A DNA stretch of 64,000 bases. Origin: an uncultured Clostridium sp. Lineage in GTDB: Bacteria; Bacillota; Clostridia; Ch29. Below, piece by piece: positions 4,099 through 46,137 of this stretch; within the stretch, counting starts at the first letter, position 1; each line of letters begins with the position of its first letter. The stretch is taken from assembly GCA_964625335.1 (NCBI GenBank), contig CAZVBE010000001.1, positions 28,463 to 92,462 on the forward strand, read 5' to 3'. The notes below the pieces were generated by a model. It made no database searches. It saw only the letters and a program-made list of their open reading frames with translations, and was not told the origin of the DNA. The translations under genes were made by a program, and so were the position numbers.

Positions 4099-5781
4099 AT
4101 GAATGAGATTATTGTAGATGTGAGTTTTGAACAGACCAGGGTCGCTTTGTTGGAGGATGAGCAGCTAAACGAGATATATATAGAGAGGTTTAGCAATAAA
4201 AGGATTGTTGGCAGTGTATATAAGGGAAGGGTTGAGAATGTACTCCCGGGTATGCAGGCTGCCTTTGTGAATATTGGGTTGGAGAAAAACGCCTTTTTGT
4301 ATGTTAAGGATATTTTTCTGGATTATGAAGAACTTTTTGACGGAACAGAGAGTCCCGGGAATATTTCCATTAAGGATGTACTCAAAAAGGGTCAGGAAAT
4401 CATGGTACAGGTGGTTAAGGAGCCTATAGACAGCAAGGGGCCAAGGGTTACTACAAATGTAACCCTCCCTGGAAGGTTTATGGTACTTTTGCCCAATGCC
4501 AACTATGTGGGGATTTCAAGGAGAATTGAGAACGAGGAAGAGCGCAGCAGATTAAAGGCAATAGCCCATGAGATTAAGCCGGAAAATATGGGGCTTATTA
4601 TCAGGACCGCTGCGGAAGGCAAAAAACTCCGGGATATCCGGCACGATTTAAGGCTTTTGGAAAAACTGTGGCAGGTCGTCAAAAGGAAGGAAAGGACATA
4701 TAACGCCCCCAGGATAATACACAGGGATTTAAACCTTGTTATGAAAACAGTAAGGGATATGTTTACGCGTAATATAGACCGCTTTATCATTAACAGCGGA
4801 ACGGAATACCATAAAATTTTGGAATTGCTTGACCTGATATCACCACAGCTTAAGGAAAGGGTTATTCTGTTCGATAAGGATCGGAATATATTCGATTATT
4901 ATAATGTGGAGCCCAAGATAGCCAATGCACTAAGCAGAAAGGTATGGCTTAATAACGGCGGATACATAGTAATTGACCAGACCGAGGCCCTTACCTCAAT
5001 TGACGTAAACACCGGAAGATTTGTAGGCAGTCTGGACCTTAAGGATACGGTACTCAAAACAAACCTTGAGGCGGCGGAGGAAATAGCAAGGCAGCTTAGA
5101 CTGCGGGATATTGGCGGCATAATAATAGTGGATTTCATCGATATGGAAAACACTGAAGATGACAGAATGGTATTAGAGCAATTAAAACAGTATTTAAAAC
5201 GTGACAGGACAAGAAGCAATGTGCTTGGCATGACTCAGCTGGGCCTGGTAGAGATAACCAGGAAAAAAGTGGGCAGGAGGATAGACTCCATACTGCAAAA
5301 GCCGTGCCCTTTTTGTCAGGGAAGCGGCAGGGTGCTTTCGGAGGAAACCATGGCCAACAAAATTGAGAGGGAATTAAAGAGGATTTTTTCCCAGACCACC
5401 GCCGAGGCTGCATTGATAGAAGCCCACCCATCGGTAGCGGCGTTGGTGATAGGCAGCGGGGGCGAACACCTGGGCCGCCTGGAAAAACAGCTGGGAAGGT
5501 ATATATATATTAAGGGCAGTTCACACCTGCACCCCGAGGATATTGAAGTAAAGGTTACAGGGAAAAAGGAATACGTTGAAAGCTATGCCTTTCCTGTCAG
5601 AGAGGGAGAAATACTTGACCTGTTTATATATGAACCCCATGCGGCTAATAATAATGACGGGATAGGCAGAATAGAAGGATATGTGATAAATGTGGAACGG
5701 GCGGGCAGCATGGCGGGGAAGAAGGTTAAAGTTAAAATCGTTAAGACCTACAAGACCTATGCAAAGGGCGAACTGGTTTGA
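4099..5781 (+). CDS. rng: Rne/Rng-family ribonuclease (RNase G-like)
   Basis: S1 domain (GSVYKGRVENVLPGMQAAFVNIG) and catalytic-core motifs ALTSIDVNTGRF and GGIIIVDFIDM. The start is preferred at MNEIIVD (4099) over the upstream ATG at 4060. Confidence 0.85.
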   Translation: MNEIIVDVSFEQTRVALLEDEQLNEIYIERFSNKRIVGSVYKGRVENVLPGMQAAFVNIGLEKNAFLYVKDIFLDYEELFDGTESPGNISIKDVLKKGQEIMVQVVKEPIDSKGPRVTTNVTLPGRFMVLLPNANYVGISRRIENEEERSRLKAIAHEIKPENMGLIIRTAAEGKKLRDIRHDLRLLEKLWQVVKRKERTYNAPRIIHRDLNLVMKTVRDMFTRNIDRFIINSGTEYHKILELLDLISPQLKERVILFDKDRNIFDYYNVEPKIANALSRKVWLNNGGYIVIDQTEALTSIDVNTGRFVGSLDLKDTVLKTNLEAAEEIARQLRLRDIGGIIIVDFIDMENTEDDRMVLEQLKQYLKRDRTRSNVLGMTQLGLVEITRKKVGRRIDSILQKPCPFCQGSGRVLSEETMANKIERELKRIFSQTTAEAALIEAHPSVAALVIGSGGEHLGRLEKQLGRYIYIKGSSHLHPEDIEVKVTGKKEYVESYAFPVREGEILDLFIYEPHAANNNDGIGRIEGYVINVERAGSMAGKKVKVKIVKTYKTYAKGELV

Positions 5782-5806
5782 CAGGATGCATTTGCAGTGG
5801 TATAAT
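5778..5806 (+). promoter_or_regulatory. consensus sigma-A promoter for rplU-prp-rpmA
   Basis: TTGACA (5778-5783), a 17-nt spacer, then TATAAT (5801-5806). This leaves a ~90-nt 5' UTR, where an L21-leader-type autoregulatory RNA sits in many Firmicutes. I did not verify such a structure. Confidence 0.7.
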
Positions 5807-5898
5807 ACTTAAGTTGTAAGTAGCCGCACGGATCGGGTTTTTAAACGCATAAAACGTACCTGTATTCGGCGAGACTGGGTTGAGGAGGTGTGCTGGAC

Positions 5899-6210
5899 AT
5901 GTATGCTTTAATAGAAACCGGAGGTAAGCAGTATAAGGTGGAAGAGGGAGATATCCTCTCGGTTGAAAAACTGAAAACCGGCGAAGGTGAAAAGGTCAGC
6001 TTTGACAAGGTGCTTATGGTGAGCAGTGAAGAAGGTGTTAAGGTTGGCAAGCCCTATGTAGAAGGGGCGGCGGTAGAAGGGGAAGTAATGCTTCACGGCA
6101 AGGATAAAAAGGTTATTGTATTCAAATACAAGGCTAAAAAGAATTACAAACGGAAGCAGGGACATCGTCAGCCGTTTACCAGGATAAAAATAAGCAAAAT
6201 TACAGGATAA
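5899..6210 (+). CDS. rplU: 50S ribosomal protein L21
   Basis: [19 protein letters not shown]-terminus and a basic C-terminus. Confidence 0.95.
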
Positions 6211-6216
6211 ACCGGT

Positions 6217-6546
6217 ATGATAACTGCTTATGTAAAAAGAGATAACAAAAAAAGTGTTGTTGAGTATAGGATAACAGGTCATGCCAACTGTGGCGAATAC
6301 GGCAGGGATGTTGTTTGCAGTGCAGTTTCGGTGCTTGCCCAGGCGATAATCATAGGTCTGACAAAGACCATGGGAATAAAGCCGGACTACTCGATAGACG
6401 GAGGCGACCTGTATTGTGCCATACCCCCCCTTGATGAAAAAAGGAGAAGGGAAGCCGACTTGTTGCTTGATACTATGTTTTACACTCTAAAGAGTATCAG
6501 GGACAGTTATCCTGAAAATATTTCGATATTTGAAACGGAGGTGTAA
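6217..6546 (+). CDS. prp: ribosomal-processing cysteine protease Prp (YsxB family)
   Basis: GHA...VVCSAVS motif. It lies between rplU and an rpmA that carries the cleavable N-terminal extension. Confidence 0.85.
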   Translation: MITAYVKRDNKKSVVEYRITGHANCGEYGRDVVCSAVSVLAQAIIIGLTKTMGIKPDYSIDGGDLYCAIPPLDEKRRREADLLLDTMFYTLKSIRDSYPENISIFETEV

Positions 6547-6549
6547 CAG

Positions 6550-6840
6550 ATGTTTAAAATAGATTTGCAATTATTTGCCCATAAAAAGGGAGTAGGGAGT
6601 TCCAGGAACGGAAGGGACAGCGAATCCAAAAGACTGGGCGCAAAAAGAGGAGACGGCCAGTACGTACTTGCAGGTAATATCCTGGTCCGGCAGAGGGGTA
6701 CGAAGATACACCCCGGCAACAATGTTGACAGGGGCGGGGATGATACGCTGTTTGCTCTGATAAATGGAGTGGTACGCTACGAGAAGAAAGGTAAGGACAA
6801 AAAGCAGGTCAGCGTATACGAAAAAGAGGCAATTGTATAA
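6550..6840 (+). CDS. rpmA: 50S ribosomal protein L27 (with N-terminal Prp-cleaved extension)
   Basis: [30 protein letters not shown]. Confidence 0.95.
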
Positions 6841-6842
6841 AA

Positions 6843-6869
6843 ACCTTCCGTTAAGGAAGGTTTTTTTTT
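6843..6869 (+). terminator. rho-independent terminator after rpmA
   Basis: AACCTTCC-gtta-AGGAAGGTT followed by a T-run. Confidence 0.8.
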
Positions 6870-6932
6870 ACCGCTGACGGGTGGATAATAATAGCAGTTG
6901 TCTGGTAAAACTAATTACGGGTGGTGGTTTAA

Positions 6933-8436
<1,504 letters not shown>

Positions 8437-8437
8437 A

Positions 8438-8464
8438 GGAACAGGCAGAGGCCTGTTCCTTTTG
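8438..8464 (+). terminator. rho-independent terminator
   Basis: GGAACAGGC-agag-GCCTGTTCC followed by TTTT. Confidence 0.75.
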
Positions 8465-8514
8465 ATTGAATATTTTTCCATTATTAAGGGATAATTAAGA
8501 GGGGAGGTGGCAAA

Positions 8515-9504
8515 ATGGAAACAACGATAAGGCGTATTAAAGAATGGATATCCGCCCGGCTGCGGGAGGCACAGATACAGGACTATTATTACAGCGGTGG
8601 AAATACTTCAAAGCATTACAGGGCAAGGAGTATGGACCGGCTGTCTGCCAGGATGGCAGTATTTGTGTTGACAGCCGTATCTTTTTACGTTTATACGGGG
8701 AATTTTTTTGCAGCCCTGTTCTTCGGTGGGGTTTGCACATATTTGTTTGACAGGCTTGCAATGCAATTAAGGAATAAACGGAGCGAAAAAAACCGGGCAG
8801 TATTGCTGGAAAAAGAAGGTATAGACAGGTTTACACAGTTATTGGAGGATAAAGATAACCGCGGTTTCTTTGAAATAATCTTTGAAACGCTCAAAAAAAC
8901 CTGCCTGTTTAAAGGTCTTAAGCTTATTGAAGACGACGAAGGCCGGCCGCTAATAATTACCGGAGAATTCAAGGGAGAAAAAGTCGGAATTTATGCCAAC
9001 AGGCTGGGAAAGGATGCATCGGTCAAGGAGGCGAATCTGAAAGAATTCGTGCAGTACTGCAAAAGCAGACAACTGGGAAACGGTATATATATTGCCAGCG
9101 GCCCCTTTGATTATGCCAGCAGGGGATATGCAGCGGGTCTCGATTCCTTTAACCTGTATATAGCGGATACCCAGACCATATACAGAGCATTTATTAAAAA
9201 GGGTTTCTTGTTTTCTATGGATGATTTGGAGGAGAAACTGGAACAGAGAGTATTTGAGCATAACAAAGAAACCCAGCACAGCCTTAAAAGAATACTCGCC
9301 TACAGGCGTATAAGGACGTATATCGTGCTGGGTGTACTGATTGCGGTATATTCCGCCTATGTACCCTATTCTGTTTATTACATACTGGTCTCCATAGTCC
9401 TTTTGTGCCTTTCTCTGACTGCGCTTATCAGATGGAAGATTGAAAAATTCATGGAGGATTCCGAAAACAGTATAAAACTGGACAGCCTGATGGATGCAGA
9501 ATGA
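8515..9504 (+). CDS. membrane protein with a central restriction-endonuclease-like (Mrr-cat-like, apparently degenerate) domain
   Basis: Hydrophobic helices at both ends. The central segment KVGIYANRLGKDASVKEANLKEFVQYCKSRQLGNGIYIASGPFDYASRGYA has the layout of Mrr-type domains, but I cannot see the catalytic QxK. Confidence 0.5.
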   Translation: METTIRRIKEWISARLREAQIQDYYYSGGNTSKHYRARSMDRLSARMAVFVLTAVSFYVYTGNFFAALFFGGVCTYLFDRLAMQLRNKRSEKNRAVLLEKEGIDRFTQLLEDKDNRGFFEIIFETLKKTCLFKGLKLIEDDEGRPLIITGEFKGEKVGIYANRLGKDASVKEANLKEFVQYCKSRQLGNGIYIASGPFDYASRGYAAGLDSFNLYIADTQTIYRAFIKKGFLFSMDDLEEKLEQRVFEHNKETQHSLKRILAYRRIRTYIVLGVLIAVYSAYVPYSVYYILVSIVLLCLSLTALIRWKIEKFMEDSENSIKLDSLMDAE

Positions 9505-9506
9505 TT

Positions 9507-10481
9507 TTATGCATTCGAGCGCTGTCCAATATAATCGGGCAGTTTCTCCATATCAAAGTTTCCACCGCTCACTACGCTGATTATCTTTTTGCCTTTGCCC
9601 CAGTTACCCTTTAATGCTGCCGCAACGCTGACGGCTCCTGAAGGCTCGGGAACAGTTTTGAAATATTCAATGCATATACCTATAGCCTGGAGGATTTCGG
9701 ATTCTTTAACAAGAAGGGTTGCGTCAACATACTTTTTCGCCAGTGGGAATGTTAAAGACCCCGGCTTCATTGTCAGCAGTCCGTCTGCTATTGAGTGGGT
9801 TTTTTCAAGCTGTGTGATTTCGCCCTTATCAATGGATACCGTCATAGAATTACTGCCCTCGGGTTCCACGCCTATAACCTGGATTTTGGGCTTTTGGTTT
9901 TTAATCAGCGTGGATATTCCAGATATAAGCCCTCCGCCTCCGATGGGGACCAGTATTATATCCACATCCGGTATCTGTTCCAGTATCTCAATTCCTATGG
10001 TCCCCTGCCCGGCAATTACGTCTAAATGATCGTAGGAGGGTATTTCCAGATAAGCCTTTTCCATGGCTATTTCCTTTGACCGTGCCAGCCTTTCGCTGGA
10101 AGTCTTGCCGCAGAACTCTATTTGGGCACCCCACCTGGCTACCGCACGGCTTTTAACCTTTGGAGCCGTTTCCGGCATTATTACAGTTGCCGGTATACCC
10201 AGCGTGTTTGCCACATAGGCAACTGCCTGACCGTGATTTCCGGAAGAGGCGGTTACAACACCCTTTAATGACGGCAGTTCTCTTTTTTGTTTGATGAGAC
10301 AGTTGCTCGCACCCCTTACCTTAAATGAATTGGTTGTTTGAAGGTTTTCTGCTTTCAACAAAAGCTCGAAACCAAGATCTTTTGACAAAAAGTTGGAATG
10401 TAATACAGGGGTGACATTGGCAAAGTCCCTGATGTTGGTATTGGCTTCCCATACCGACTGGAGTTTCAACAAATATACCAC
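9507..10481 (-). CDS. PLP-dependent threonine/serine dehydratase family protein
   Basis: SFKVRGA PLP-lysine motif, GGGGLISG glycine loop, 324 aa. Confidence 0.8.
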   Translation of the reverse strand: MVYLLKLQSVWEANTNIRDFANVTPVLHSNFLSKDLGFELLLKAENLQTTNSFKVRGASNCLIKQKRELPSLKGVVTASSGNHGQAVAYVANTLGIPATVIMPETAPKVKSRAVARWGAQIEFCGKTSSERLARSKEIAMEKAYLEIPSYDHLDVIAGQGTIGIEILEQIPDVDIILVPIGGGGLISGISTLIKNQKPKIQVIGVEPEGSNSMTVSIDKGEITQLEKTHSIADGLLTMKPGSLTFPLAKKYVDATLLVKESEILQAIGICIEYFKTVPEPSGAVSVAAALKGNWGKGKKIISVVSGGNFDMEKLPDYIGQRSNA

Positions 10482-10637
10482 TTCCTTTCTTTAATATATG
10501 CTGTCAGATTTATAATATCATTTTTTAAATGATATATGAATTTATTAGTAACCTAAAGATGCTTTTAATTTTATGATAATACTGTATAATGTTAGTTGTA
10601 TGCATTTAGTCGCAGTACCTGGAGGTGGATACATTAA

Positions 10638-11249
10638 ATGGAGCCCCAAAAAATTGGTATCATGGGGGGAACCTTTGATCCAATTCATTATGGACATCTG
10701 GTTACGGCTGAAGCGGCAAGGGACGAGTTCAATCTGGACAAGGTTGTGTTTGTACCGTCCGGTAATCCGCCGCACAAAAAGGATAAGCCAATAAGCCCGG
10801 GAACAGACAGGTTTTTAATGACGGTTTTGGCTACATCCAACAATCCATATTTTGAAGTTTCCGATATGGAGCTTAAGCGTGAAGGCTACACATATACCGT
10901 TGATACGCTTAGAGACTTCATTGAGATCTATGGAGGAGGCGCCCATCTGTATTTTATAACCGGCGCTGACGCGGTTATGGAAATAATAACGTGGAAGGAT
11001 GTATCCACTATCCTTAAACTATGCAGGATAGTATCCGCCTACAGGCCGGGTTCGGACATAAATAAGTTCAGGAGTATGGTTGGCGAGCTGGAGAGAGTAT
11101 ACAGAAGCAAGGTGCACCTGATAGAGGTACCGGCCCTGGCAATATCCTCGACGGAAATACGGCGCAGGGTAAGCAACAATATCACTATAAAATATCTTCT
11201 GCCCGGGAAGGTGGAAAAGTATATACAACAAAAAGGGTTGTACAGGTAA
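10638..11249 (+). CDS. nadD: nicotinate-nucleotide adenylyltransferase
   Basis: GIMGGTFDPIHYGH (HxGH) motif and ISSTEIR motif. Confidence 0.9.
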   Translation: MEPQKIGIMGGTFDPIHYGHLVTAEAARDEFNLDKVVFVPSGNPPHKKDKPISPGTDRFLMTVLATSNNPYFEVSDMELKREGYTYTVDTLRDFIEIYGGGAHLYFITGADAVMEIITWKDVSTILKLCRIVSAYRPGSDINKFRSMVGELERVYRSKVHLIEVPALAISSTEIRRRVSNNITIKYLLPGKVEKYIQQKGLYR

Positions 11250-11337
11250 AAGCCCCGCGACCGGTGGTTTGACACCTCTTGGTGTATCGGGGAGCTATAC
11301 CCGGGAACTATTAGCACAGAAATGCGTCTAATAATTA

Positions 11338-11940
11338 ATGCCATTTGATTGCGAAAAAGGGGTGGTCTGGTTGGACGGCATTAGTGATATTAAGGAAAAG
11401 CTAAAGACCATGCTGTCCTACGACAGATATATGCATTCGCTGCGGGTAACAAAGCAGGCGGTAATACTTGCCAGGCGGTTTAGAGCCGATGCCTGCAAGG
11501 CAGAAATTGCAGGGCTTTTGCACGACTGCGCAAGGGATTTAAGTCTTGGTGAGGCATTGAATGCGGCAGCCAAATTTGATATTATATTAGATAATATTAC
11601 AATAAATTCACCGGGAATAATTCATGCAGTAATAGGAGAGGCTGTTGCGAGATCCGAATTTAATATAACGGATGGTGAAATACTGGATGCCATCAGGTAT
11701 CATACAACCGGAAGGAAAGGTATGGCTCCGCTTGAAAAGATAATATTCATAGCCGATTATACAGAGTCTTCGAGGGATTTTCCCGGCGTCGGTAAGGTAA
11801 GGAGTATTCTGGAGCAAAGCCTTGACATGGCGGTGCTGTATGCGATGGAAAATACGCTGGAATATCTTATCAGTAAAAAACAGCTGATTCATCCGGATAC
11901 AATAGATGCAGTAAACAGTTTTTATCTTGATAAAGCATGA
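11338..11940 (+). CDS. yqeK: HD-domain bis(5'-nucleosyl)-tetraphosphatase YqeK (start uncertain)
   Basis: HS...LLHDCAR HD motif, and the conserved nadD-yqeK-rsfS neighbourhood. Confidence 0.8.
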   Translation: MPFDCEKGVVWLDGISDIKEKLKTMLSYDRYMHSLRVTKQAVILARRFRADACKAEIAGLLHDCARDLSLGEALNAAAKFDIILDNITINSPGIIHAVIGEAVARSEFNITDGEILDAIRYHTTGRKGMAPLEKIIFIADYTESSRDFPGVGKVRSILEQSLDMAVLYAMENTLEYLISKKQLIHPDTIDAVNSFYLDKA

Positions 11941-26353: not shown

Positions 26354-26451
26354 GGGGGTAGATGGGTGCTGGTGTGCCTCCTGGTCTTCAAAACCAGTCG
26401 CTGGGCGTTAGTAGCGTCCGGGGTGGGTTCAATTCCCACATACTCCCGCCA
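26354..26451 (+). tRNA. selC: tRNA-Sec (anticodon UCA)
   Basis: GGTC-TTCAAAA-CCAG anticodon arm with UCA, a long variable arm, T-arm GTGGG-TTCAATT-CCCAC, an extended acceptor stem and encoded CCA. It is ~98 nt, lies next to selAB and is followed by a strong terminator. Confidence 0.85.
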
Positions 26452-36136: not shown

Positions 36137-37438
36137 ATGGAATTGCTGGGAGAGGGGATTGTAAAAAATATAATAGATGAAATGCTCGAGAGAATGCGTG
36201 AACTGGAGACCACCAAGAGTCCCAATCTTGTCCATGGTTTTTCGATGCTAAAGATTGCTGCAATAGCAGAAAGGGCAAAGCACGGGGTTCCCGTAAGGGA
36301 GATGTACGGTTCAACCAGAAAACTCCCTACCTTTGAGGAACTTATGTTTGTCCCCGCTATGATAGATGTGCTTCCGGTCAGCCCAAATACGGTTAACACC
36401 GAGGTGGTTATAGGAAAAAATACAAGTAAGCCGGTTAAAATATCCACTCCAATAATGCTGTCTGCAATGGCTTTCGGGCTTTCGGTCAACCGCCGGACCA
36501 AGATATGCTGGGGAAAGGCTTCGGCTGCCGCCGATACCGCCTGTAATTCGGGAGATACCGGTTTTTACCCTGAAGAACGAAAATATGCGAGATATTACAT
36601 AGTCCAGCTTAACAGAGCCCGTTACGGCAACTCGGAGGAGGAAATAGAGCAGGCGGATGCCGTGGAAATACGCTTCGGCCAGGGAGCGATGGGGGCACTA
36701 TCAGGGACCGTTGACGATGCGGATGTCGACAAAGAGCTTGCAAAGCAGTTGGGTGTAAGACCCGGTAAGAGTTCAACCCGGCCAATGCTGCACCCCGAGA
36801 TAGATCAGGGGAAAACCTTAAAGGATATAGTTCAAAACGTCAGGAATATCAATCCCGACATACCGGTGGGCGTAAAGGTTGCCGCAGGGAATATTGAAAA
36901 GGACCTTGACGCTGTCATAAATGCGGGATGCGACTTTGTTACCATAGACGGCGGCGGAGGCGGGACCGCAAACTCCCCCGAGGTAACCATAAACAACCTG
37001 GGCGTTCCGCTGGTATACGCCGTTGGCAGAGCCCACCGCCATTTAGTCAGCCGTGGTGAACGCGGCAATATAGATCTGATAGTAACTGGAGGCTTAAGGG
37101 ATGCGGGGGACTGCCTGAAGGCCATGGCCCTTGGTGCCAATGCCGTTTATCTGGGCGAGTCGGCCCTTATAGCCATGAGCTATTCCCAGTGGGACAGGGT
37201 GCCGCCGGGAACCGCACCTTCCGAGATGTTCCTTTCCTTTGGCGACCATGAAGAGCTGCTGGATATCGAGGAGGGAACAAAGGCTTTGGCCAATTTCATT
37301 AAGGCTTCCACGTCCGAGATAGCTATGCTGACAGGCCTGGTTGGGAAAAATGATATTAAAAAGGTCAGTATTGACGATATGATAGCCCTTACGGAGCATA
37401 TGAGTAATGCCACCGGTGCACGCCTGGCATGGCAGTAG
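36137..37438 (+). CDS. FMN-binding glutamate-synthase-family (GltS FMN-domain-like) protein
   Basis: TIM-barrel FMN-site motifs (DFVTIDGGGGGT, TGGLRDAGD), 433 aa. Confidence 0.8.
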   Translation: MELLGEGIVKNIIDEMLERMRELETTKSPNLVHGFSMLKIAAIAERAKHGVPVREMYGSTRKLPTFEELMFVPAMIDVLPVSPNTVNTEVVIGKNTSKPVKISTPIMLSAMAFGLSVNRRTKICWGKASAAADTACNSGDTGFYPEERKYARYYIVQLNRARYGNSEEEIEQADAVEIRFGQGAMGALSGTVDDADVDKELAKQLGVRPGKSSTRPMLHPEIDQGKTLKDIVQNVRNINPDIPVGVKVAAGNIEKDLDAVINAGCDFVTIDGGGGGTANSPEVTINNLGVPLVYAVGRAHRHLVSRGERGNIDLIVTGGLRDAGDCLKAMALGANAVYLGESALIAMSYSQWDRVPPGTAPSEMFLSFGDHEELLDIEEGTKALANFIKASTSEIAMLTGLVGKNDIKKVSIDDMIALTEHMSNATGARLAWQ

Positions 37439-37516
37439 AAAAGAAGTATCCAAAAATGCCATGGATAAATATATAGACCACCGGAAAAGGTGTGCTTTTG
37501 TTTGCGCTTATTATCG

Positions 37517-37545
37517 GCAGCAATAGAAGTTGCTGCTATTTTTGT
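37517..37545 (+). terminator. rho-independent terminator (last core feature before the AT-rich island)
   Basis: GCAGCAA-tagaag-TTGCTGC followed by TATTTTT. Confidence 0.7.
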
Positions 37546-37781
37546 CTATTTAGAGGAAAATATAAACAAATGTAGAACTCTTATGTATAACACCTAGATA
37601 TATCAGTTATGGCACTGTAATATGTTAGTGATGCCATAGATAAATCTAATTGACTTTTATTCTAATTGGCCGCATCCAATAATACCAAATAATTATTCAT
37701 TATATTTTCAAAATATCTTCAAAAAAAATAAGACTATGATAAAATTAATTTGCGTAAGTAAATTGAGAAAGGGGTGTGGAA

Positions 37782-38633
37782 ATGAGTTCAAATAATAATA
37801 TTATCTTGAATAGAGTTTTCACCCGCAGTACTTTTACGGAGTTGCTTAAAGAACAATATAGTAATACATACTACCAAGTCATTAAACGCTATATAGAAAA
37901 TATTGAGACTAAAAGCAATCGAATTCTAATAAGTGAAATATACAAAGTTATGGCGCATAATTATCGAAATGAATATGTGTATAAGAATACTCTGCTAAAC
38001 AGATTGTTAATTGCCAAGCATAGCTTGAAGACGACTACAGCATTAACTGAGATACCGATAAGCAAATCAAAGGCTGATTTTGTATTGATAAACGGTAAAG
38101 CAATCGTTTATGAAATCAAAACAGAATTAGATAGCTTTGATCGATTGGAAAACCAATTGAGCAATTACTATAAAGCCTTTGATAATGTATGCGTGGTAAC
38201 CTGTGAGGATAATTTTGAGAAGTTAGATAGATTGCTGAAGTATAGCCCTGCTGGCATTTATATTCTGACGAAACGAAATAGACTTAGTGCTAGAAAAGAG
38301 CCTATTACTGATAATACTAACTTAGACTCAAATATTATGTTTAAGATTTTAAGGAAGCGAGAATTTGAGAATATATTAAAAATCCATTATGGAGAGCTCC
38401 CTATAGTATCACAAGTTAATTATTATAATGAATGTTATAAACTATTCGGAAATATTGATATCCAAGAAGCTTATCAGTATATGTTAAAGGAGCTAAAAAA
38501 GAGAGCCATAATTAAAATTGAGGAATATAAAAGAATACCCTATGAATTGAAATACCTGGCTTATTTTTCAAAATATAAAACGTTAGATTACCAGCGATTA
38601 GATAATTTTTTGAATAAAAAATTTGGAGGTTAG
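37782..38633 (+). CDS. PD-(D/E)xK nuclease-fold protein, sce7726-family-like
   Basis: TEIPISKSKADFVLINGKAIVYEIKTELDS shows E / D / ExK spacing. ATG at 37782 follows GGGGTG. The size and its pairing with the next gene match my recollection of the sce7726/sce7725 pair. Confidence 0.6.
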   Translation: MSSNNNIILNRVFTRSTFTELLKEQYSNTYYQVIKRYIENIETKSNRILISEIYKVMAHNYRNEYVYKNTLLNRLLIAKHSLKTTTALTEIPISKSKADFVLINGKAIVYEIKTELDSFDRLENQLSNYYKAFDNVCVVTCEDNFEKLDRLLKYSPAGIYILTKRNRLSARKEPITDNTNLDSNIMFKILRKREFENILKIHYGELPIVSQVNYYNECYKLFGNIDIQEAYQYMLKELKKRAIIKIEEYKRIPYELKYLAYFSKYKTLDYQRLDNFLNKKFGG

Positions 38634-38637
38634 TCTT

Positions 38638-39570
38638 ATGTATTTTCCATATTTACGTGGAAGACAATATGAGTTGCTTGCCTTATGCGAATTGGTAGAT
38701 GCTCACCGCCTTGGCAAACAATCCATCCCAATTATTGAGCCAGTGAAACCATCCTCGACTTTAATTAAAGTTTTGAATTCCTTCACAAAGAATAATCAAG
38801 AAATAGCCATTATTCATAATCCGCAGGTAGGATCTTTCTCTAAAGATATACAAGACGAAAAGAGAAATGAATTTAGAGAGAAATATAAGGAATTATTGCA
38901 GAATAAGTTAGTAATAAAAGCTCATATTTTAAACAAACATTCTAAATTGGAACTTAAGCAATTAGAAACACAAGGTTTTGACAAAAACGATCTATTGATA
39001 ATAAGTAATAAACGTGATTATGTAAACTTATATCCAGAAGAGTTTCGCACATCTATTCCTCGCTATATACTAATACCTGACGAAAGCATATTCAGACGTA
39101 AAATAAGAAGAAACCGGGTTTTACTCGCCGATAAATTCGAAAAACAAAACCGAAATATTGATTATGCAATAGTTGACGATGAGCCCTTTTCAGATGATCA
39201 TTTATTCTATAGAGATGATGGTTTTATTGGATTTTCAGACTACTCAATTGTAGGAGATACTTTCTTGGAAGCTGGCTTCGCACCCTATGCAGTAGCGTTA
39301 CATATTGTTTATTTTGCAGATGATGAAAGTTTGCGTATTAGGCATTTTGTTTCTATTTCAAACGAAGATATCACGAATCCAGCAGGAAAATTCTATGAAG
39401 CATTAATAAAGCTAAACGATTGGGATATGTCACACAAAATGGATACACTTGGCCTGTCAGGGCTTTTAACACATTTTGAAGACGAGACATACCCTGGACT
39501 GGGAACAGTAAAAAAGCTTTCTATGATGCATCATATTGAATTAGTTGGACGATATCTTAACGAGGTATAA
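38638..39570 (+). CDS. sce7725-family-like protein (function unknown)
   Basis: ATG lies 4 nt after the upstream stop, with GGAGG 8 nt upstream. The N-terminus MYFPYLRGRQYELLAL is as I recall for this family. Confidence 0.55.
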   Translation: MYFPYLRGRQYELLALCELVDAHRLGKQSIPIIEPVKPSSTLIKVLNSFTKNNQEIAIIHNPQVGSFSKDIQDEKRNEFREKYKELLQNKLVIKAHILNKHSKLELKQLETQGFDKNDLLIISNKRDYVNLYPEEFRTSIPRYILIPDESIFRRKIRRNRVLLADKFEKQNRNIDYAIVDDEPFSDDHLFYRDDGFIGFSDYSIVGDTFLEAGFAPYAVALHIVYFADDESLRIRHFVSISNEDITNPAGKFYEALIKLNDWDMSHKMDTLGLSGLLTHFEDETYPGLGTVKKLSMMHHIELVGRYLNEV

Positions 39571-39575
39571 TAACG

Positions 39576-40643
39576 ATGATATGTTGTGAAAAATGTTTTA
39601 AAGATATAGAAATTAAAGCCATTCTTAAAAGTTTAAATCAAGTTGGCATATGCGAATTATGTGGAAAAGTAAATGTAAATATTTATAATACTGATACAAA
39701 CAATGAACTAGCAGAGATGTTTGACGACTTATTAAATATTTACACTATTAGAGAAAACTTACCCGATGGTTATCCACGTGAGAATGTAAATCTGTTAAAA
39801 GATGAACTTTGCAGACGATGGAATATTTTTAATATCGATAAAGACTTAGCATATAGAGCTATTACTGGTATTTGTAGCGAGAAATATCATGAACATCCGG
39901 AAATATTTGATACACCTATTGGAATTTTGGAATTACATCAGACAGATTATCTTGAAGAACATTCAATAATGAAAACCTTTGAGTGGGAGAATTTTGTTGA
40001 AGGAATAAAAACTAATAACCGTTTCCATACAGATTATATAAATAAAGAAGTGCTTTATTCTTTCTGTAACTATATAAAAAAAATATATAAGACAGGAGCT
40101 ATATTCTATAGAGCAAGAATTTGCTCAGATGAGACAGGCTTTACTATTAACGAAATGGGGGCTCCTCCTGTAGGAGATGCCACTGGTGGTCGAGCTAATC
40201 CCATAGGAATAAGCTGCTTATATCTTGCTGATACCGATATAACTGCTCTTAATGAAATTAGAGCGGGTATTTATGACTATGTTGCAATAGGTAAATTTGT
40301 TCTTAAACAAGATATTGAGGTTGTTAATCTAACAATTGTGGATCAGATCAGCCCTTTTGGGGGGATAGATAATACCGTTCATGCAGTAAATAAAAAGCAT
40401 TTGCAGAAAATAAGTGCTGATATTGCAAAACCTTTACGAAGACACGACAGCCCACTTGATTATCTTCCTACTCAATATATTAGTGATTACATAAAAAGCA
40501 GAGAATTTGCTGGTATAGAATACAAAAGCACGATGAACCAAGGTGGATATAATCTGGCAATATTTGAAGGAAAATTATTTGAATGTACAACTGTGGATGT
40601 TTACGATATTCGCGAATTGAAATATGAATATGATAAGTTATAG
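39576..40643 (+). CDS. zinc-ribbon (HEPN/RES-NTD1-like) + RES-domain protein, putative NAD+-degrading effector
   Basis: The N-terminus has CCEKC...CELC. The C-terminus reads FYRAR...GGRANPIGISCLYLA...ALNEIRA...YLPTQYISDYIKSREFAGIEYKST, giving the R/E/S signature positions. It starts 5 nt after the upstream stop. Confidence 0.7.
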   Translation: MICCEKCFKDIEIKAILKSLNQVGICELCGKVNVNIYNTDTNNELAEMFDDLLNIYTIRENLPDGYPRENVNLLKDELCRRWNIFNIDKDLAYRAITGICSEKYHEHPEIFDTPIGILELHQTDYLEEHSIMKTFEWENFVEGIKTNNRFHTDYINKEVLYSFCNYIKKIYKTGAIFYRARICSDETGFTINEMGAPPVGDATGGRANPIGISCLYLADTDITALNEIRAGIYDYVAIGKFVLKQDIEVVNLTIVDQISPFGGIDNTVHAVNKKHLQKISADIAKPLRRHDSPLDYLPTQYISDYIKSREFAGIEYKSTMNQGGYNLAIFEGKLFECTTVDVYDIRELKYEYDKL

Positions 40644-41073
40644 CATATAAACAGCTCAAGGGGTTTCAGTGTTTTCAATTTGTGTAGCGAAGAATTATTC
40701 AAATACTTTAGATAGTCTTAGATACTGGCTCGGAAAAAGTGAGACTACAGAAGAAGTAATTATTGCATCATTTGAAAAAAACAATAAGTGATTTCATCCA
40801 TAAGCCATACGATATTGTTGGGGAAGTGGCTAACAGAGAAGCTTATTAAAACAAGTTAATAAAGATAGAAAAACTGTATATGAATCTGTCAAACAGACAA
40901 ATTATTATACCAGGTATATGAACGGCTTTATTGTCCAAAATTGTTAATATATCTGTCTATAAGACACTTATGGTATATTTTATGTAATGTATAATAAAAT
41001 AGCTATAAATTAGATTGTCTAATCCATAGATTGTAAAAAATAAGATTTTTCATATAGACGGAGGAGATTTAAT

Positions 41074-43215
41074 ATGAGTTTTGACGTTGTAAGAGGAAAA
41101 GTTAATAAAATAAATCCGACTCAAAGTCTTGTGAAGAACATAACAAGATACTTTGAAAATAAACATGATAGTGGGACTTTATTTTTAGGTTATCCATTAT
41201 CAGCTGGATCAGAATCCAAAGTTACAATAGATGCACTACTAGTAAGTAAAAGGTGTGGCTTAATTGCATTCATTTTCCCGGAAGATAGTAATAGCCCTGA
41301 ATTAATAATGGAAGAGCAAGATACGCTTTATTATCATCTTGATTACAATTTTAAAAAGTATATCAGTCTTAAGAAAGGAAGAGATTTAGCCTTTGAACCT
41401 ATTGTAGTTTCAGTATTTCCAGATGACAGTTATCCAAATATTGAAGGAGAGTATACACTTATATCCATTGAAGAAATAGAAAAAGTATTGAATGAAAACC
41501 AAGATTTTAGTTTTGATGTTTATAAGAGATTATGCGAGGTACTTCAAAGAGTTGCAAATATAAAACCAAAGAAAAAACGTCAAAATGTTAAAAAGGAATT
41601 ATCTTTTGGTGGTAAGATTAAAAAAATTGAAAGGGAAATTGCTAATCTAGATCAGTGGCAAAAGAAAGCAGCATTAGAATTACCGGAAGGGCCTCAAAGG
41701 ATAAGAGGGCTAGCGGGTTCCGGCAAAACCATAGTTTTGGCACTTAAAGCAGCATATTTACATTCTCAATTTCCAGAATGGAATATCGCAATTACATTTT
41801 ACACAAGGTCATTATCTCAGCAATTTAAAGATTTAATAAGACAATTTTATTTTGAGTTTTCAAGTGAAGAACCTGATTGGGGAAAAGTAAATATTGTTCA
41901 TGCATGGGGAACAAGTTTCGAAAATGGCATATATTCAATTGCGGCAAGGTCAGTGAATGTTACACCGCTTAACTTTAACACTGCAAAAATGAAATATGGG
42001 AGAATAAATGCTTTTAGTGGTGTTTGCGAAGAGCTACTTCCATATTTTGGTGATGATTATGAACCAGTTTTTGATGCGGTCCTAATTGATGAAGCTCAAG
42101 ATTTACCTAGTACGTTTTATAAGATTATATTTCAATTAACAAAAAAACCAAAAAGAATAACTTGGGCGTATGACGAGTTGCAAAACCTTAGTGAAATTGA
42201 AATGCCATCTCTTGCAGAAATGTTTGGAAGAGATTCAGAAGGCAATTTAAATGTTATTTTAGAAAAAAACCCTGATGAAGCGCAAATGGATATAGTACTT
42301 CCAATATGCTATAGGAATCCGCCTTGGGCATTAACATTAGCTCATGCATTAGGATTTGGTATATATAGAGATAAAGGGATGATTCAGATGTTTGATGAAC
42401 TTAAGCTATGGGAAGATATTGGGTATCAGCGTATTAGTGGTAGGTTGCAATATGGAAATAAGATCATATTAAAACGAAGTACAAAATCAACACCAGAATA
42501 TTTTGCTGATTTATTAAAACCAGAAGAAAGCGTTCAATCAAAAGTATTCAAATCTGCCGAAGAACAATATAAATGGGTTTCAAATCAAATAAAGAATAAT
42601 ATTGAATATGATGAACTTGACCCTGACGATATTTTAGTAATTTTCCCTGATGCATACCGTTCTAATAAAGAGTCCATAGATTTTAGAAAGTCTTTAAATC
42701 AATTAGGCATTAAGTCTGTATTAGCTGGAGTAGATACAGATAGAGATACATTTAAAATGCCTGAATATATATCTTGTTCGAGTATATACCGAGCTAAAGG
42801 TAATGAAGCCCCCATGGTATATATTGTGAACGCAAATCATTGTTCTGATGGTTTGGAGTTAATTAAGTTAAGGAACATACTATTTACGGCGATAACAAGA
42901 TCAAGAGCGTGGATAAGAATATGTGGAGTTGGAGAAGGAATGGATTTACTCCAGGAAGAAATAAACAAATGTATAGAAAAGGGATATATTTTAGATTTTA
43001 AGTTGCCTACCAAAGAAGAGTTAGAATCAATAAGAAGAATAAATAGGGAAAGAACACAGGAAGAAGTGAAAAAGATAAACCTCGCTCAGAGCAATGTAAA
43101 GCAACTTATTGAAGGTTTTGAGAAAGGAGAATTAGATCCTGAATTGATACCAGAATTAGAAGTGTTACTAAATGTGTATAAAAAATCAAAAATGAGTGAT
43201 AACGAAGATGAGTAA
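41074..43215 (+). CDS. NERD-like N-terminal domain + superfamily-1 (UvrD/DUF2075-like) helicase/ATPase
   Basis: Walker A GLAGSGKT, Walker B VLIDEAQDL, then AYDELQNL, ICYRNP, SIYRAKGNEAPMVYIV and FTAITRSRAWIRICG. The N-terminal segment TIDALLVSKRCGLIAFIF is NERD-like. Confidence 0.75.
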   Translation: MSFDVVRGKVNKINPTQSLVKNITRYFENKHDSGTLFLGYPLSAGSESKVTIDALLVSKRCGLIAFIFPEDSNSPELIMEEQDTLYYHLDYNFKKYISLKKGRDLAFEPIVVSVFPDDSYPNIEGEYTLISIEEIEKVLNENQDFSFDVYKRLCEVLQRVANIKPKKKRQNVKKELSFGGKIKKIEREIANLDQWQKKAALELPEGPQRIRGLAGSGKTIVLALKAAYLHSQFPEWNIAITFYTRSLSQQFKDLIRQFYFEFSSEEPDWGKVNIVHAWGTSFENGIYSIAARSVNVTPLNFNTAKMKYGRINAFSGVCEELLPYFGDDYEPVFDAVLIDEAQDLPSTFYKIIFQLTKKPKRITWAYDELQNLSEIEMPSLAEMFGRDSEGNLNVILEKNPDEAQMDIVLPICYRNPPWALTLAHALGFGIYRDKGMIQMFDELKLWEDIGYQRISGRLQYGNKIILKRSTKSTPEYFADLLKPEESVQSKVFKSAEEQYKWVSNQIKNNIEYDELDPDDILVIFPDAYRSNKESIDFRKSLNQLGIKSVLAGVDTDRDTFKMPEYISCSSIYRAKGNEAPMVYIVNANHCSDGLELIKLRNILFTAITRSRAWIRICGVGEGMDLLQEEINKCIEKGYILDFKLPTKEELESIRRINRERTQEEVKKINLAQSNVKQLIEGFEKGELDPELIPELEVLLNVYKKSKMSDNEDE

Positions 43216-43888
43216 AAAAATTGTTAAATACAATAAGAACATCCAAAATACTGCTGAAGAGATGAACAATACAATGATTCTATTATTTGGTTTGAAATTA
43301 CTTTATTACTATAAAGAAGTAAGACCTCAATTTTCGAATGGAAAACAAATCATTACTTGGGATAATCATATACCTGATAGAGCAAACTGCGGCCCATTTT
43401 TTACTACTTTAAAACAATATGAACACATTCTTAAATCCGGTGCTTTTCACTGTATTTTGTTCGATGGTTCAATTATTAGATCTGCCTTTATATTTGATAG
43501 TAATAACTTGATTAATCATAGCCACCTGTGGTGGCCAGCACCTTATAATAATGAGAGTTATATTGAAGAAGTTACACCACAAAGCAAATATGAAGATTTT
43601 ATAAATGATTCTAATTGGAAAAAAAGATTGAGAATGAGAAGCCCTATTAGAATAGATTTTGATCCAAAAAATATGAATGATAATCATCCATTGGTTCATA
43701 TGCACATTCAGCACCAAGAGACAAGAATTCACATAGATAAGCCTATTTGTTTTAATAAGTTTGTAAAATATATTTTTCAAAATTTTTATTCTAGTATTGA
43801 TCTGGATTTTAGAAAATGGAATTTATTAGACTTTTCATATGAAAAATCAGAGATATATGGACACATTTCTTCTAGAATAATAATTTAA
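43208..43888 (+). CDS. small partner protein of the helicase (DUF2290-like, tentative)
   Basis: ATG overlaps the helicase stop (ATGAGTAA). 226 aa with an HPLVHMHIQH histidine cluster. The assignment rests on architecture and memory only. Confidence 0.45.
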   Translation: MSKKIVKYNKNIQNTAEEMNNTMILLFGLKLLYYYKEVRPQFSNGKQIITWDNHIPDRANCGPFFTTLKQYEHILKSGAFHCILFDGSIIRSAFIFDSNNLINHSHLWWPAPYNNESYIEEVTPQSKYEDFINDSNWKKRLRMRSPIRIDFDPKNMNDNHPLVHMHIQHQETRIHIDKPICFNKFVKYIFQNFYSSIDLDFRKWNLLDFSYEKSEIYGHISSRIII

Positions 43889-45253: not shown

Positions 45254-45291
45254 ATTAAGTCTGCCTTATCGGGTGGACTTAATATTTTTTT
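45254..45291 (+). terminator. rho-independent terminator after the GNAT gene
   Basis: ATTAAGTC ... GACTTAAT stem followed by a T-run. Confidence 0.6.
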
Positions 45292-45371
45292 ATTATTTAT
45301 TGTACAATTAATAAAAAAATACGTTAAACTATGAAGGGATATTGAAAATATTTTCGTCTAGTTTAATGAAA

Positions 45372-45559
45372 GGGGACACACCGCTACTTGCGGGAATTCC
45401 TTGCTGCGGAATGTCCCCGAATGATAGACTTCGAGGTCAGGGACACACCGCTGCATATAAGGTCAGGGGACACACCTTTATAGCTGGTATTCCTTTATGG
45501 CCAAGGAATGTCCCCATTAGAACTCCTTGTTGCGGAATGTCCCCGAATGATAGACTTCG
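45372..45559 (+). repeat. array of hairpin-forming repeats upstream of the ECF sigma gene
   Basis: GGGGACACACC occurs three times (45372, 45440 lacking one G, 45466). Its partial complement GGAATGTCCCC occurs three times (45408, 45505, 45534). A 35-bp direct repeat CCTTG[C/T]TGCGGAATGTCCCCGAATGATAGACTTCG sits at 45399-45433 and 45525-45559. Confidence 0.8.
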
Positions 45560-45588
45560 GACTAGAGACAGAGGAAAGGGGGGGAGAG

Positions 45589-46137
45589 ATGAACTCAGAG
45601 GATATCATAATAAAAAAGGCGGCCGCCGGCGATAAAGCCGCCTATGAACAACTGGTGGATAAATACAAAGGATACGTATACGCAATCATTCTAGGCTTAA
45701 CAAGGGACAGCTTTCATGCCGAAAACATTGCCCAGGAGGTATTCCTGAAAATTTACATCTCTTTACCCCAGTATGAGTTCAAAGGTTTTAGGACCTGGAT
45801 AGGCAGGATTGCAACCCACAAGGCAATAGACTGGAAAAGGAAGCAGCAGAAGATACAGGCAAAGGAAAAGCTTGTGGCGGTGGAGGAGAACTTGCCGGCA
45901 CAAGAGGCCGGTAACAGCATTGAGGATGCTGTTATAAGGCAGGAGGATGCTATTAGAATCAGACATCTGTGCAGCCAATTGCCTGATAACTACAGAACGG
46001 TGGTTAAAAAGTACTACTTTTCGGGGAAGAGCTACCGGCAGATAGCCAGCGAGGAAGGTATAGCGGTTAAGACGGTGGAGACCAGACTCTACAGGGCAAA
46101 ACAGAAATTAAAGGAACAGTGGAAGGAGGGTGGTTAG
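45589..46137 (+). CDS. ECF (sigma-70 family group 4) RNA polymerase sigma factor
   Basis: ATG follows AGGGGGGGAG. Region 2 reads YKGYVYAIILGLT...AENIAQEVFLKIY. Region 4 HTH reads SYRQIASEEGIAVKTVETRLYRAKQKL. Confidence 0.9.
   Translation: MNSEDIIIKKAAAGDKAAYEQLVDKYKGYVYAIILGLTRDSFHAENIAQEVFLKIYISLPQYEFKGFRTWIGRIATHKAIDWKRKQQKIQAKEKLVAVEENLPAQEAGNSIEDAVIRQEDAIRIRHLCSQLPDNYRTVVKKYYFSGKSYRQIASEEGIAVKTVETRLYRAKQKLKEQWKEGG

Follow-up and report, generated by a model that had tools for sequence, protein, structure and literature searches.

What does an operon do when its three genes carry, in turn, a nuclease-like motif, a sequence from a family annotated by co-occurrence only, and a domain known from NAD+-degrading toxins? 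We examined such an operon in a 64,000-nucleotide stretch of DNA from an uncultured Clostridium sp. (contig CAZVBE010000001.1), hereafter called the window. The three genes, referred to as genes 1, 2 and 3 and together as the triad, lie at positions 37782–40643. They encode a member of the sce7726 family, a member of the sce7725 family, and a protein that joins a Zn ribbon to a RES domain. We propose that the triad is a self-contained, horizontally mobile, toxin-containing module that acts as an abortive-infection anti-phage system, and that it is an evolutionary cousin of Gop-Beta-cII. We put the probability of this reading at roughly 55%.

Gop-Beta-cII, encoded by the satellite phage P4, protects Escherichia coli against the phages lambda and P1 (Rousset et al. 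2022, PMC9122126). Its Gop component is toxic without Beta (PMC9122126, citing Ghisotti 1990), and the phage accessory gene orf184 triggers the cell-death activity of the system (bioRxiv 10.1101/2023.04.06.535777). With a gene 1 from the same family as P4 cII and a gene 2 that is probably Beta-like, the triad is no orphan but a relative of this validated system. Judged from the sequences, the most fitting description is that of a Gop-Beta-cII-type system whose genes are rearranged and in which a RES effector stands in the place of Gop.

The triad is inherited as a unit

A preliminary description of the window, made from its letters alone, had proposed a census of homologous triads. Keeping the 80 best matches of each scan, we found complete triads, with the genes in the same order, at 152 of 165 sampled loci. 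A chance arrangement is thus highly unlikely, since the same three genes recur in the same order in other organisms. Among species-representative genomes, 77 of 80 loci had all three genes in this order; these were mostly from Bacillota, with 45–79% identity to gene 2. The triad was also present on a Salmonella integrative and conjugative element (ICE), at 31–34% identity. A metagenome scan seeded with distant sce7725 sequences, together with four viral contigs, gave 74 complete triads out of 84, and seven of the incomplete ones end at a contig edge.

The three genes are co-inherited. Comparison of their protein distance matrices by the mirror-tree approach gave correlations of r = 0.90–0.95 over 119 non-identical loci, and therefore the three genes travel together. 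The pairing of sce7726 with sce7725, named in the preliminary description as a cognate pair, was confirmed by an intact gene 1 beside gene 2 in 143 of 147 loci and by a correlation of r = 0.90 between their distance matrices.

Intactness was scored with hidden Markov models (HMMs) at those loci where the contig leaves room for the gene. By this count gene 1 was intact in all but four of the 147 loci, whereas gene 3 was intact in 136 of 151, fragmented in 9 and absent in 6. Loss or damage is therefore more frequent for gene 3 than for gene 1 (15/151 versus 4/147), an excess of modest significance (Fisher p = 0.016, or 0.036 after correction for gene length) that is expected of a costly toxin, although in metagenome contigs fragmentation may reflect assembly errors. 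The repeated decay of gene 3 suggests selection against the toxin in some hosts. The damage takes several forms, the gene being split, truncated, replaced by a fragment of an insertion sequence or missing (for example at loci L004, L031, L059, L069, L095, L096, L105, L106, L108, L126, L138, L149 and L172).

In the loci sampled we found no other effector paired with sce7725; RES was present in all of the 80 best-matching loci of the metagenome scan seeded with distant representatives. At one Clostridium locus (L061, 9430–10383) a lone sce7725 gene, with neither an intact gene 1 nor a RES gene, is followed by a gene for a 317-residue protein that weakly matches HNH (7e-4). The locus may have decayed, or the 317-residue protein may serve as a different partner.

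Gene 1 and P4 cII are of one family

Gene 1 (37782–38633, + strand, 283 residues) is a member of the cII/sce7726 family. It matched the NCBIfam model sce7726 (NF033832) with an E-value of 5e-55 and 186.3 bits, well above the curated cut-off of 70 bits, over model positions 1–183 of 184. This confirms the family assignment of the preliminary description. P4 cII matched the same model (2.5e-44, 151.4 bits), and its product name in RefSeq is 'sce7726 family protein'. Gene 1 also matched the PADLOC model 'cll' (PDLC02989, the cII component of Gop-Beta-cII; 1e-15) and phrog_984 (5.7e-23), and BLASTP aligned it with P4 cII at 8e-9 over the invariant D...ExK core.

We aligned 20 diverse members of the family, including P4 cII and a homologue from a Pasteurella phage. 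The invariant positions are E64, D99, N104, G105, E111, I112, K113, D117, R121, L122 and Q125. The preliminary description had read an E / D / ExK core from the translation. D99, E111 and K113 hold as invariant residues of this core, but the glutamate of its TEIP motif is not conserved and is Gln in several homologues. The D...ExK motif is thus real and family-wide, and in sequence it is PD-(D/E)xK-like. The reading of gene 1 as a PD-(D/E)xK-like protein is thus supported for the motif; for the fold, the family gave no consistent match to Pfam or PDB profiles, and a Pfam scan of gene 1 itself gave no match. A PD-(D/E)xK fold is accordingly a prediction from the invariant motif alone. We propose that gene 1 acts as a sensor or regulator subunit.

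Gene 2 is a sce7725 protein and a probable remote homologue of P4 Beta

Gene 2 (38638–39570, + strand, 310 residues) matched the NCBIfam model sce7725 (NF033831) along its full length (positions 1–312 of 312; 9.3e-102, 340.9 bits, curated cut-off 60 bits), again as first suspected. The family is large, with about 4,500 clusters at 90% identity and 1,489 at 50%. P4 Beta belongs to the Pfam family Beta_protein (4e-56) and not to sce7725. Even so, the preliminary description had noted that the N-terminus of gene 2 is reminiscent of 'beta protein' families, and this hunch gained support from profile–profile comparison.

The two proteins have a common N-terminal motif, YFPYLRGRQYELLAL...IPIIEP in gene 2 and YYPALRTRSAEMTGL...ILPLIS in P4 Beta. 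Alignment of the two families with hhalign gave an E-value of 1.9e-3 for 25 sce7725 against 2 Beta sequences, 4e-4 for about 120 close homologues on either side, and 2.8e-5 (probability 74%, 92 aligned columns) for 136 diverse sce7725 representatives against 120 Beta sequences. The E-value therefore improved stepwise with the depth of the profiles; the controls against the RES family did not (E 0.12 to 0.84). A relaxed alignment of the two families is collinear along the full length. The alignment includes 31 sce7725 positions with conservation of 90% or more; 15 of them coincide with Beta positions conserved to the same degree, where 6.6 are expected (P = 3e-4), a test that is partly circular since hhalign favours the alignment of conserved columns. 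Ten of the conserved pairs are identical residues (sce7725/Beta): Y2/Y10, P4/P12, R7/R15, P31/P37, F167/F203, G198/G232, G206/G240, H222/H246, F237/F271 and A255/A285. In addition, the sce7725 HMM directly matched a Beta-family protein from Sinorhizobium (5e-5, 13 bits), with noise in the same run at about 4e-3. Both families also have the same obligatory neighbour, a sce7726-family gene. From these sequence comparisons we consider it probable, at about three chances in four or slightly better, that sce7725 is remotely homologous to P4 Beta, in the sense of remote homology and not of family membership.

The AlphaFold2 (AF2) model of gene 2 has a mean predicted local distance difference test score (pLDDT) of 78.7 and a predicted template modelling score (pTM) of 0.78. 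It shows alternating β-strands and α-helices that form a partial barrel. Foldseek found no significant match to this model in the PDB, the best being weak matches to TIM-barrel enzymes (E ≥ 0.019). In BFVD there was one significant match, to an unnamed 379-residue protein of a Gordonia phage (7.5e-5). We propose that gene 2 acts as an antitoxin or regulator of gene 3.

A 544-residue protein (P0502) was considered as a fusion of genes 1 and 2 and rejected, its N-terminal domain being detected by neither the gene 1 HMM nor Pfam. This domain, of about 240 residues, carries a D...YEIK motif (phrog_2776) and a weak match to the 'DNA repair protein' phrog_5429 (8.5e-7), and is joined to a full sce7725 domain (residues 243–534). 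Possibly, sce7725 is here joined to a nuclease-like partner of another kind.

Gene 3 carries a RES domain behind a Zn ribbon

Gene 3 (39576–40643, + strand, 355 residues), the putative effector, is a protein of the RES/ADP-ribosyltransferase (ART) fold with all of the signature residues. It is composed of a CCxxC...CxxC Zn ribbon (residues 3–29), a helical region of the HEPN/RES-NTD1 type (about residues 40–165) and a domain of RES/ART fold (about residues 172–345). The Pfam RES model (PF08808, gathering threshold 23.2 bits) matched residues 198–340 (positions 40167–40595, + strand) at 2.3e-15 and 57.4 bits, and all 32 members of the gene 3 family that we compared have a RES match. Residues invariant across these 32 homologues are C26, C29, R179, R181, G205, R206, Y216, E227, S318, T319 and N326, while C3, C4 and C7 reach a conservation of 90% or more. 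The signature of Arg, Glu and Ser recognized in the preliminary description therefore corresponds to the invariant R206 (GGRAN), E227 (NEIRA) and S318 (YKST).

The N-terminal assignment made there also holds, at the level of the family. A HEPN_RES_NTD1 match was obtained for 14 of the 32 members (best 1.7e-5). The gene 3 of the window gave nothing against HEPN/RES-NTD1 (PF18870) at E ≤ 0.01, and the Salmonella homologue matched at 6e-5, under the gathering score.

The AF2 model of gene 3 (pLDDT 88.4) agrees with the RES assignment. The top 35 Foldseek matches in the PDB are all NAD+-binding proteins of the ART fold, with modest E-values (≥ 0.01); they include diphtheria toxin (0.012) and the Pseudomonas putida RES protein 9r35_A (probability 0.98, TM-score 0.57 on the target). 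A profile of the RES domain of the family gave marginal matches to the sequences of two RES toxins in the PDB, ParT (6d0i, the closest, E 0.63) and 8qnq, and its GRxN..G..Y motif aligned with ParT over the catalytic Arg motif. The full-length profile returned only SecA noise from PDB sequences, and BLASTP showed no similarity between gene 3 and Gop.

As the preliminary description had stated, there is no Xre-type antitoxin: neither the open reading frames (ORFs) of the operon nor their Pfam matches include an Xre or helix-turn-helix (HTH) gene, and none is conserved among 140 flanking genes of homologous loci, where HTH_36 occurs in two.

The triad sits among mobile and defence genes

These 140 genes, which directly flank the triad in the genome loci and were called by a crude ORF search, matched 154 Pfam families. 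No family occurred in more than six of the genes, so there is no fourth conserved gene. The commonest families are those of mobile elements, with serine recombinases, relaxases, transposases and integrases (Resolvase 6, Relaxase 3, rve 3, Phage_integrase 2). PADLOC matches among the flanking genes comprise type I, III and IIG restriction enzymes, JetC, MADS components, PbeA and several candidate systems, and GmrSD is also found there.

The triad occurs in 19 of 5,426 complete E. coli genomes. In two E. coli loci, from strains MS 115-1 (L177) and 300444 (L178), it lies on an element that bears an integrase and a relaxase. The right flank is shared by the two loci and the cargo on the left, at about 5000–11500 of the locus, is variable: a KwaB-like gene in MS 115-1, and in 300444 a reverse transcriptase accompanied by a phosphoribosyltransferase-like gene, together with a cluster of caspase, TIR and adenylate/guanylate cyclase genes. 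The region resembles a hotspot for defence genes carried by an integrative mobilisable element. The flanking matches and the E. coli elements agree with the placement of the triad in defence and mobile contexts that had been anticipated from the window.

This setting bears on a first alternative, in which the triad is a three-component toxin–antitoxin (TA) addiction module that stabilises its host integrative or conjugative elements through post-segregational killing by RES, with no dedicated anti-phage role. Mobile-element genes are indeed the commonest flanks, the copies of Salmonella and E. coli are carried by an ICE or by an integrative mobilisable element, and the characterised RES proteins are toxins of type II TA systems. 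We nevertheless regard it as unlikely. At the borders of the island in the window we found no integrase, adjacent tRNA gene, or att-like or flanking direct repeats. Defence genes are often direct neighbours of the triad, and three proteins, one of them a putative nuclease-like sensor, exceed the needs of a simple TA pair. Furthermore, the homologous Gop-Beta-cII does protect against phages (PMC9122126). TA and abortive-infection roles are also not mutually exclusive.

A model for the action of the triad

Our model of abortive infection follows from the analogy with Gop-Beta-cII. In uninfected cells, the sce7726/sce7725 pair would keep the RES effector inactive. Gene 2 would be the likeliest direct neutraliser, by analogy with Beta and Gop, and would replace the missing Xre antitoxin. 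A phage cue would relieve this block and release the RES domain; its sensor could be the nuclease-like product of gene 1 or the Zn-ribbon/NTD1 domain of gene 3. The released domain would then consume NAD+, by phosphorolysis or by hydrolysis to ADP-ribose derivatives, or would ADP-ribosylate an essential target. As a result, growth of the infected cell would halt before phage progeny are made. We infer in this way the defence role of the triad, its sensing and neutralising proteins, and its chemistry.

With regard to the chemistry, NAD+ depletion is one of two that are known for RES domains, the other being protein ADP-ribosylation. The RES toxin ParT ADP-ribosylates Prs instead of degrading NAD+. 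RES toxins otherwise degrade NAD+, and most of those characterised deplete NAD+/NADP+ (PMC9503650; 10.64898/2026.09.04.749371).

Several observations weigh against the abortive-infection reading. For gene 1, a profile of the family found no PDB match at E ≤ 10, and Pfam gave nothing consistent over the 20 members, with one weak PDDEXK_3 match (0.093) in a single member. For gene 2, BLASTP detected no similarity to P4 Beta, scans with Pfam and PADLOC, including the Beta_protein (PF14350) and 'beta' models, gave no match at E ≤ 0.1, hhalign failed to align the two families in global mode, and P4 Beta is absent from the Foldseek listing for the AF2 model. The most conserved stretch of gene 2, residues 165–216 (with D165, F167, N173, Y176, G198, D201, G206, G213 and P216), is also the sole part of that model with pLDDT below 50, and may be a region that depends on a partner or ligand. 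Moreover, the many invariant His, Asp, Glu and Lys residues of the gene 2 family are more suggestive of an enzyme than of an antitoxin that simply binds. Two differences separate the triad as a whole from its proposed cousin. Its effector is a cytoplasmic protein of 355 residues with Zn ribbon, NTD1 and RES, whereas P4 Gop has 133 residues; and its genes, in the window as in the 152 complete loci of the census, all run in one direction, with the cII-like gene first, the Beta-like gene second and the effector last, whereas P4 has gop and then beta with a convergent cII. Lastly, the census kept 80 matches per scan from a superfamily of 1,489 clusters at 50% identity, viral contigs gave only four matches among 2.9 million, and the counts of defence neighbours are raw, without a genome-wide background.

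In a second alternative, the roles or the chemistry would be distributed differently. The RES domain would modify a target, like ParT, or make an ADP-ribose-derived signal, and gene 1 or gene 2 would do the killing or restriction. Such an arrangement would fit the closest PDB sequence match of the RES profile, which is ParT and covers the catalytic Arg motif, and the catalytic-looking D...ExK that gene 1 retains as invariant. It would also fit the invariant residues of gene 2, which are typical of enzymes and lie on a barrel-like fold, and ART-family enzymes can generate signals in immune systems (PMC9503650). We think that this, too, is improbable, and to a similar degree as the addiction module. 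The prevalent chemistry of RES toxins is depletion of NAD+/NADP+, and the gene 1 family lacks a consistent match to nuclease profiles in Pfam or the PDB. Decay preferentially strikes gene 3 and not gene 1, and this points to gene 3 as the one that is costly to carry. The toxic protein of P4 is Gop, the functional counterpart of gene 3, and not cII (PMC9122126).

A bolder extension of the abortive-infection model is that sce7726 and sce7725/Beta form an ancient and widespread two-protein core for phage sensing that drives unrelated effectors, Gop in Proteobacteria and RES here, with the barrel-fold sce7725/Beta protein acting as an enzyme that gates toxicity by making or destroying a small molecule, or by modifying the effector. 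We offer it tentatively and judge it doubtful. If gating of this kind were true, RES toxins, which are so far known under the control of Xre-type antitoxins only, would have a further and new way of being controlled.

The abortive-infection reading, if true, would have several consequences. Two large families with placeholder names, sce7725 and sce7726, annotated so far by co-occurrence alone, would be given a functional setting and would be tied to the poorly understood Gop-Beta-cII of P4. The cII and Beta proteins would represent a reusable sensor/regulator core with exchangeable effectors, easing mechanistic work on both systems, and a RES effector controlled without an Xre antitoxin would join the known NAD+-targeting immune effectors. 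The native E. coli copies, such as that of MS 115-1, make the hypothesis directly testable with standard panels of coliphages.

Operon layout and neighbouring genes

The ORFs and junctions bear out the operon as first described, with three genes on one strand, gaps of 4 and 5 nucleotides, and GGAGG/GAGGT sites, and all peptide motifs quoted at that time are present in the translations. Gene 1 ends with ...GGAGGTTAG and is followed by 4 nucleotides (TCTT) and the ATG of gene 2; gene 2 ends with ...GAGGTATAA, followed by 5 nucleotides (TAACG) and the ATG of gene 3. The ribosome-binding sites of genes 2 and 3 (GGAGG and GAGGT) lie inside the 3' ends of the preceding genes, and this placement fits translational coupling along the operon. 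Gene 1 has a weaker site, AAAGGGGTG, directly before the ATG at 37782. This ATG is most likely its start, because homologues open with the same MxSNNNIILNR sequence, and an in-frame GTG at 37776 is less likely.

The operon lies in an AT-rich island of about 31% GC, another feature of the preliminary description that held, with a GC fraction of 0.30–0.33 across about 37.5–44 kb and 0.44–0.51 in the flanks. A terminator-like hairpin with a 9-bp stem and a T run (37516–37537, + strand) closes the upstream glutamate-synthase-like gene (36137–37438; Pfam Glu_synthase, 2.7e-63) and marks the left edge of both the operon and the island. Upstream of gene 1, a candidate sigma-70-type promoter (37718–37745, + strand) consists of TTCAAA, a 16-nucleotide spacer and TAAAAT with an extended TG. 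It is a positional candidate only, because promoter-like sites are no commoner in the region than in shuffled sequence (41 versus 38.4 expected).

The sole tRNA gene of the window, a tRNA-SeC (selenocysteine) at 26354–26451 on the + strand, is distant from the island and is not its integration site; its presence fits an anaerobic host of the Bacillota. Beyond the right end of the island, a 40-nucleotide direct repeat is present in two copies (45394–45433 and 45520–45559) that are 95% identical and 126 nucleotides apart. It sits just upstream of, and overlaps the start of, an ORF (45508–46137) that resembles a sigma factor of the extracytoplasmic function (ECF) type by sequence. A second pair of repeats, of 19 nucleotides, is found at 45364 and 45458, and an AT-rich palindrome at 45283–45321.

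Downstream of the triad, the same island contains a helicase gene (41074–43215, + strand) and a DUF2290 gene (43196–43888, + strand) that overlap by 20 nucleotides. The helicase matched PADLOC PDLC03002 at 3.4e-226; the DUF2290 protein matched PDLC02998 at 6e-30 and Pfam DUF2290 at 9.6e-33. The pair corresponds to a two-gene system from a study of P2/P4 hotspots that blocks T7 in E. coli (PMC9122126). The gap between it and the triad (40644–41073) spans 430 nucleotides, with no ORF, no detected terminator-like site and several promoter-like hexamer pairs.

Adjacency on the same strand of one AT-rich island, with this gap, could suggest that the triad, helicase and DUF2290 gene (41074–43888 for the latter two) form a single five-gene system. 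This is effectively refuted, since no homologue of the helicase or of DUF2290 lies near the triad in any of 80 genome loci, and the pair is an independent system validated in E. coli (PMC9122126) that PADLOC recognizes at 3e-226 and 6e-30. The helicase and DUF2290 genes are therefore a separate system. A plain housekeeping role, or one in NAD metabolism, that is unconnected with conflict, to which the use of NAD+ by RES domains and the resemblance of the gene 2 barrel to metabolic enzymes might point, is very hard to reconcile with the patchy distribution in E. coli (19 of 5,426 genomes), the atypical GC of the island, highly variable neighbourhoods rich in mobile and defence genes, the repeated pseudogenisation of gene 3, and the homology of gene 1 to a component of a phage-satellite defence system.

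Comparison with known systems

Known systems close to the triad include the type II TA systems Xre-RES, MbcTA, NatRT and ParST, whose toxins degrade or phosphorolyse NAD(P)+ or ADP-ribosylate Prs. Gene 3 resembles them in its C-terminal RES domain, with conserved Arg, Glu and Ser and the ART fold. The toxins of the Xre-RES type, however, stand alone and have about 145–190 residues, whereas in the triad a Zn ribbon and a HEPN/RES-NTD1-type region of about 170 residues precede the RES domain in one protein, no gene for an antitoxin of the Xre, MbcA or ParS type lies beside it, and its two partners are unrelated proteins of about 300 residues each. The architecture of Zn ribbon, HEPN/RES-NTD1 and RES was already recorded in a 2013 survey (Anantharaman et al. 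2013, PMC3710099), as a table entry with no link to sce7725/sce7726 or Gop-Beta-cII and no function.

The logic that we propose, from the sensing of a phage through an NAD+-consuming effector to growth arrest, is also that of the NAD+-depleting abortive-infection systems Thoeris, DSR/SIR2, SEFIR, and some CBASS and pAgo systems. In contrast to these, the effector of the triad is of the RES/ART type and not TIR or SIR2, and the sensor proteins differ. The operon also lacks a gene for signalling by cyclic nucleotides or ADP-ribose isomers.

None of the PADLOC (2023) models matches gene 2 or gene 3. Over the region, PADLOC thus recognized gene 1, by the 'cll' model, and the helicase pair, but not genes 2 and 3. 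Our literature search found no paper that links sce7725 or sce7726 with RES, Gop-Beta-cII or defence, and none that describes the triad. The statement in the preliminary description that no named and validated system of this composition is known therefore holds for the exact combination with RES, which is unnamed in the sources that we searched, but not for its relatives, since the related Gop-Beta-cII has been validated (PMC9122126).

Gop-Beta-cII itself has a characteristic layout of a small Gop-like gene, Beta and a convergent cII, which we found in P4, a Pasteurella phage, a Pf-type prophage of Pseudomonas, Methylibium and several plasmids. The order of Beta followed by convergent cII was read directly in P4, Pseudomonas, Methylibium and four plasmid loci. 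In Pseudomonas aeruginosa (L084–L086) the Gop-like, Beta and cII genes lie at the margin of a filamentous prophage of the Pf type (Phage_Coat_B, DUF2523, DUF5447), beside a HigB/HTH toxin–antitoxin pair, so the module is not limited to P4-like satellites. In a Neorhizobium plasmid (L173, 935–2182), a gene for a 415-residue protein with a reverse-transcriptase-like YSDD motif lies upstream of a divergent Gop-like/Beta/cII module, and may be another defence gene of the retron, Abi or DRT type. As read from their sequences, the Gop-like proteins of P4, Pseudomonas, Methylibium and Pmp11 have 131–161 residues; their N-terminal segments are hydrophobic, and their tail is charged and resembles a coiled coil. 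P4 Gop looks like a small protein of two transmembrane segments and a coiled coil. No small Gop-like ORF of this kind (about 130–160 residues, hydrophobic) is present among the ORFs of the triad operon.

Beyond effector and gene order, already discussed, the triad differs from Gop-Beta-cII in its sampled hosts, which are mainly Bacillota where the Gop type is found in Proteobacteria, and in that Pfam and PADLOC models of Beta miss gene 2. The similarities lie in the two other components and in the setting. P4 cII and gene 1 belong to one NCBIfam family, sce7726, and have the invariant D...ExK core in common. Gene 2 and Beta are of similar size, with a common N-terminal YxPxLRxRxxE and downstream GxSD...G and H motifs. 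Both systems are toxin-containing modules of three genes on mobile elements that adjoin other defence systems, and the helicase–DUF2290 neighbour of the triad in the window comes from the same P2/P4 hotspot study. What is new is the combination of sce7726, sce7725 and RES, which is unnamed in the literature and the PADLOC (2023) models that we searched. What is already known is the family of gene 1, in a named and validated system, the RES effector domain with its architecture, and the conventional logic of the proposed response; for this reason, the triad is a variation on a known theme.

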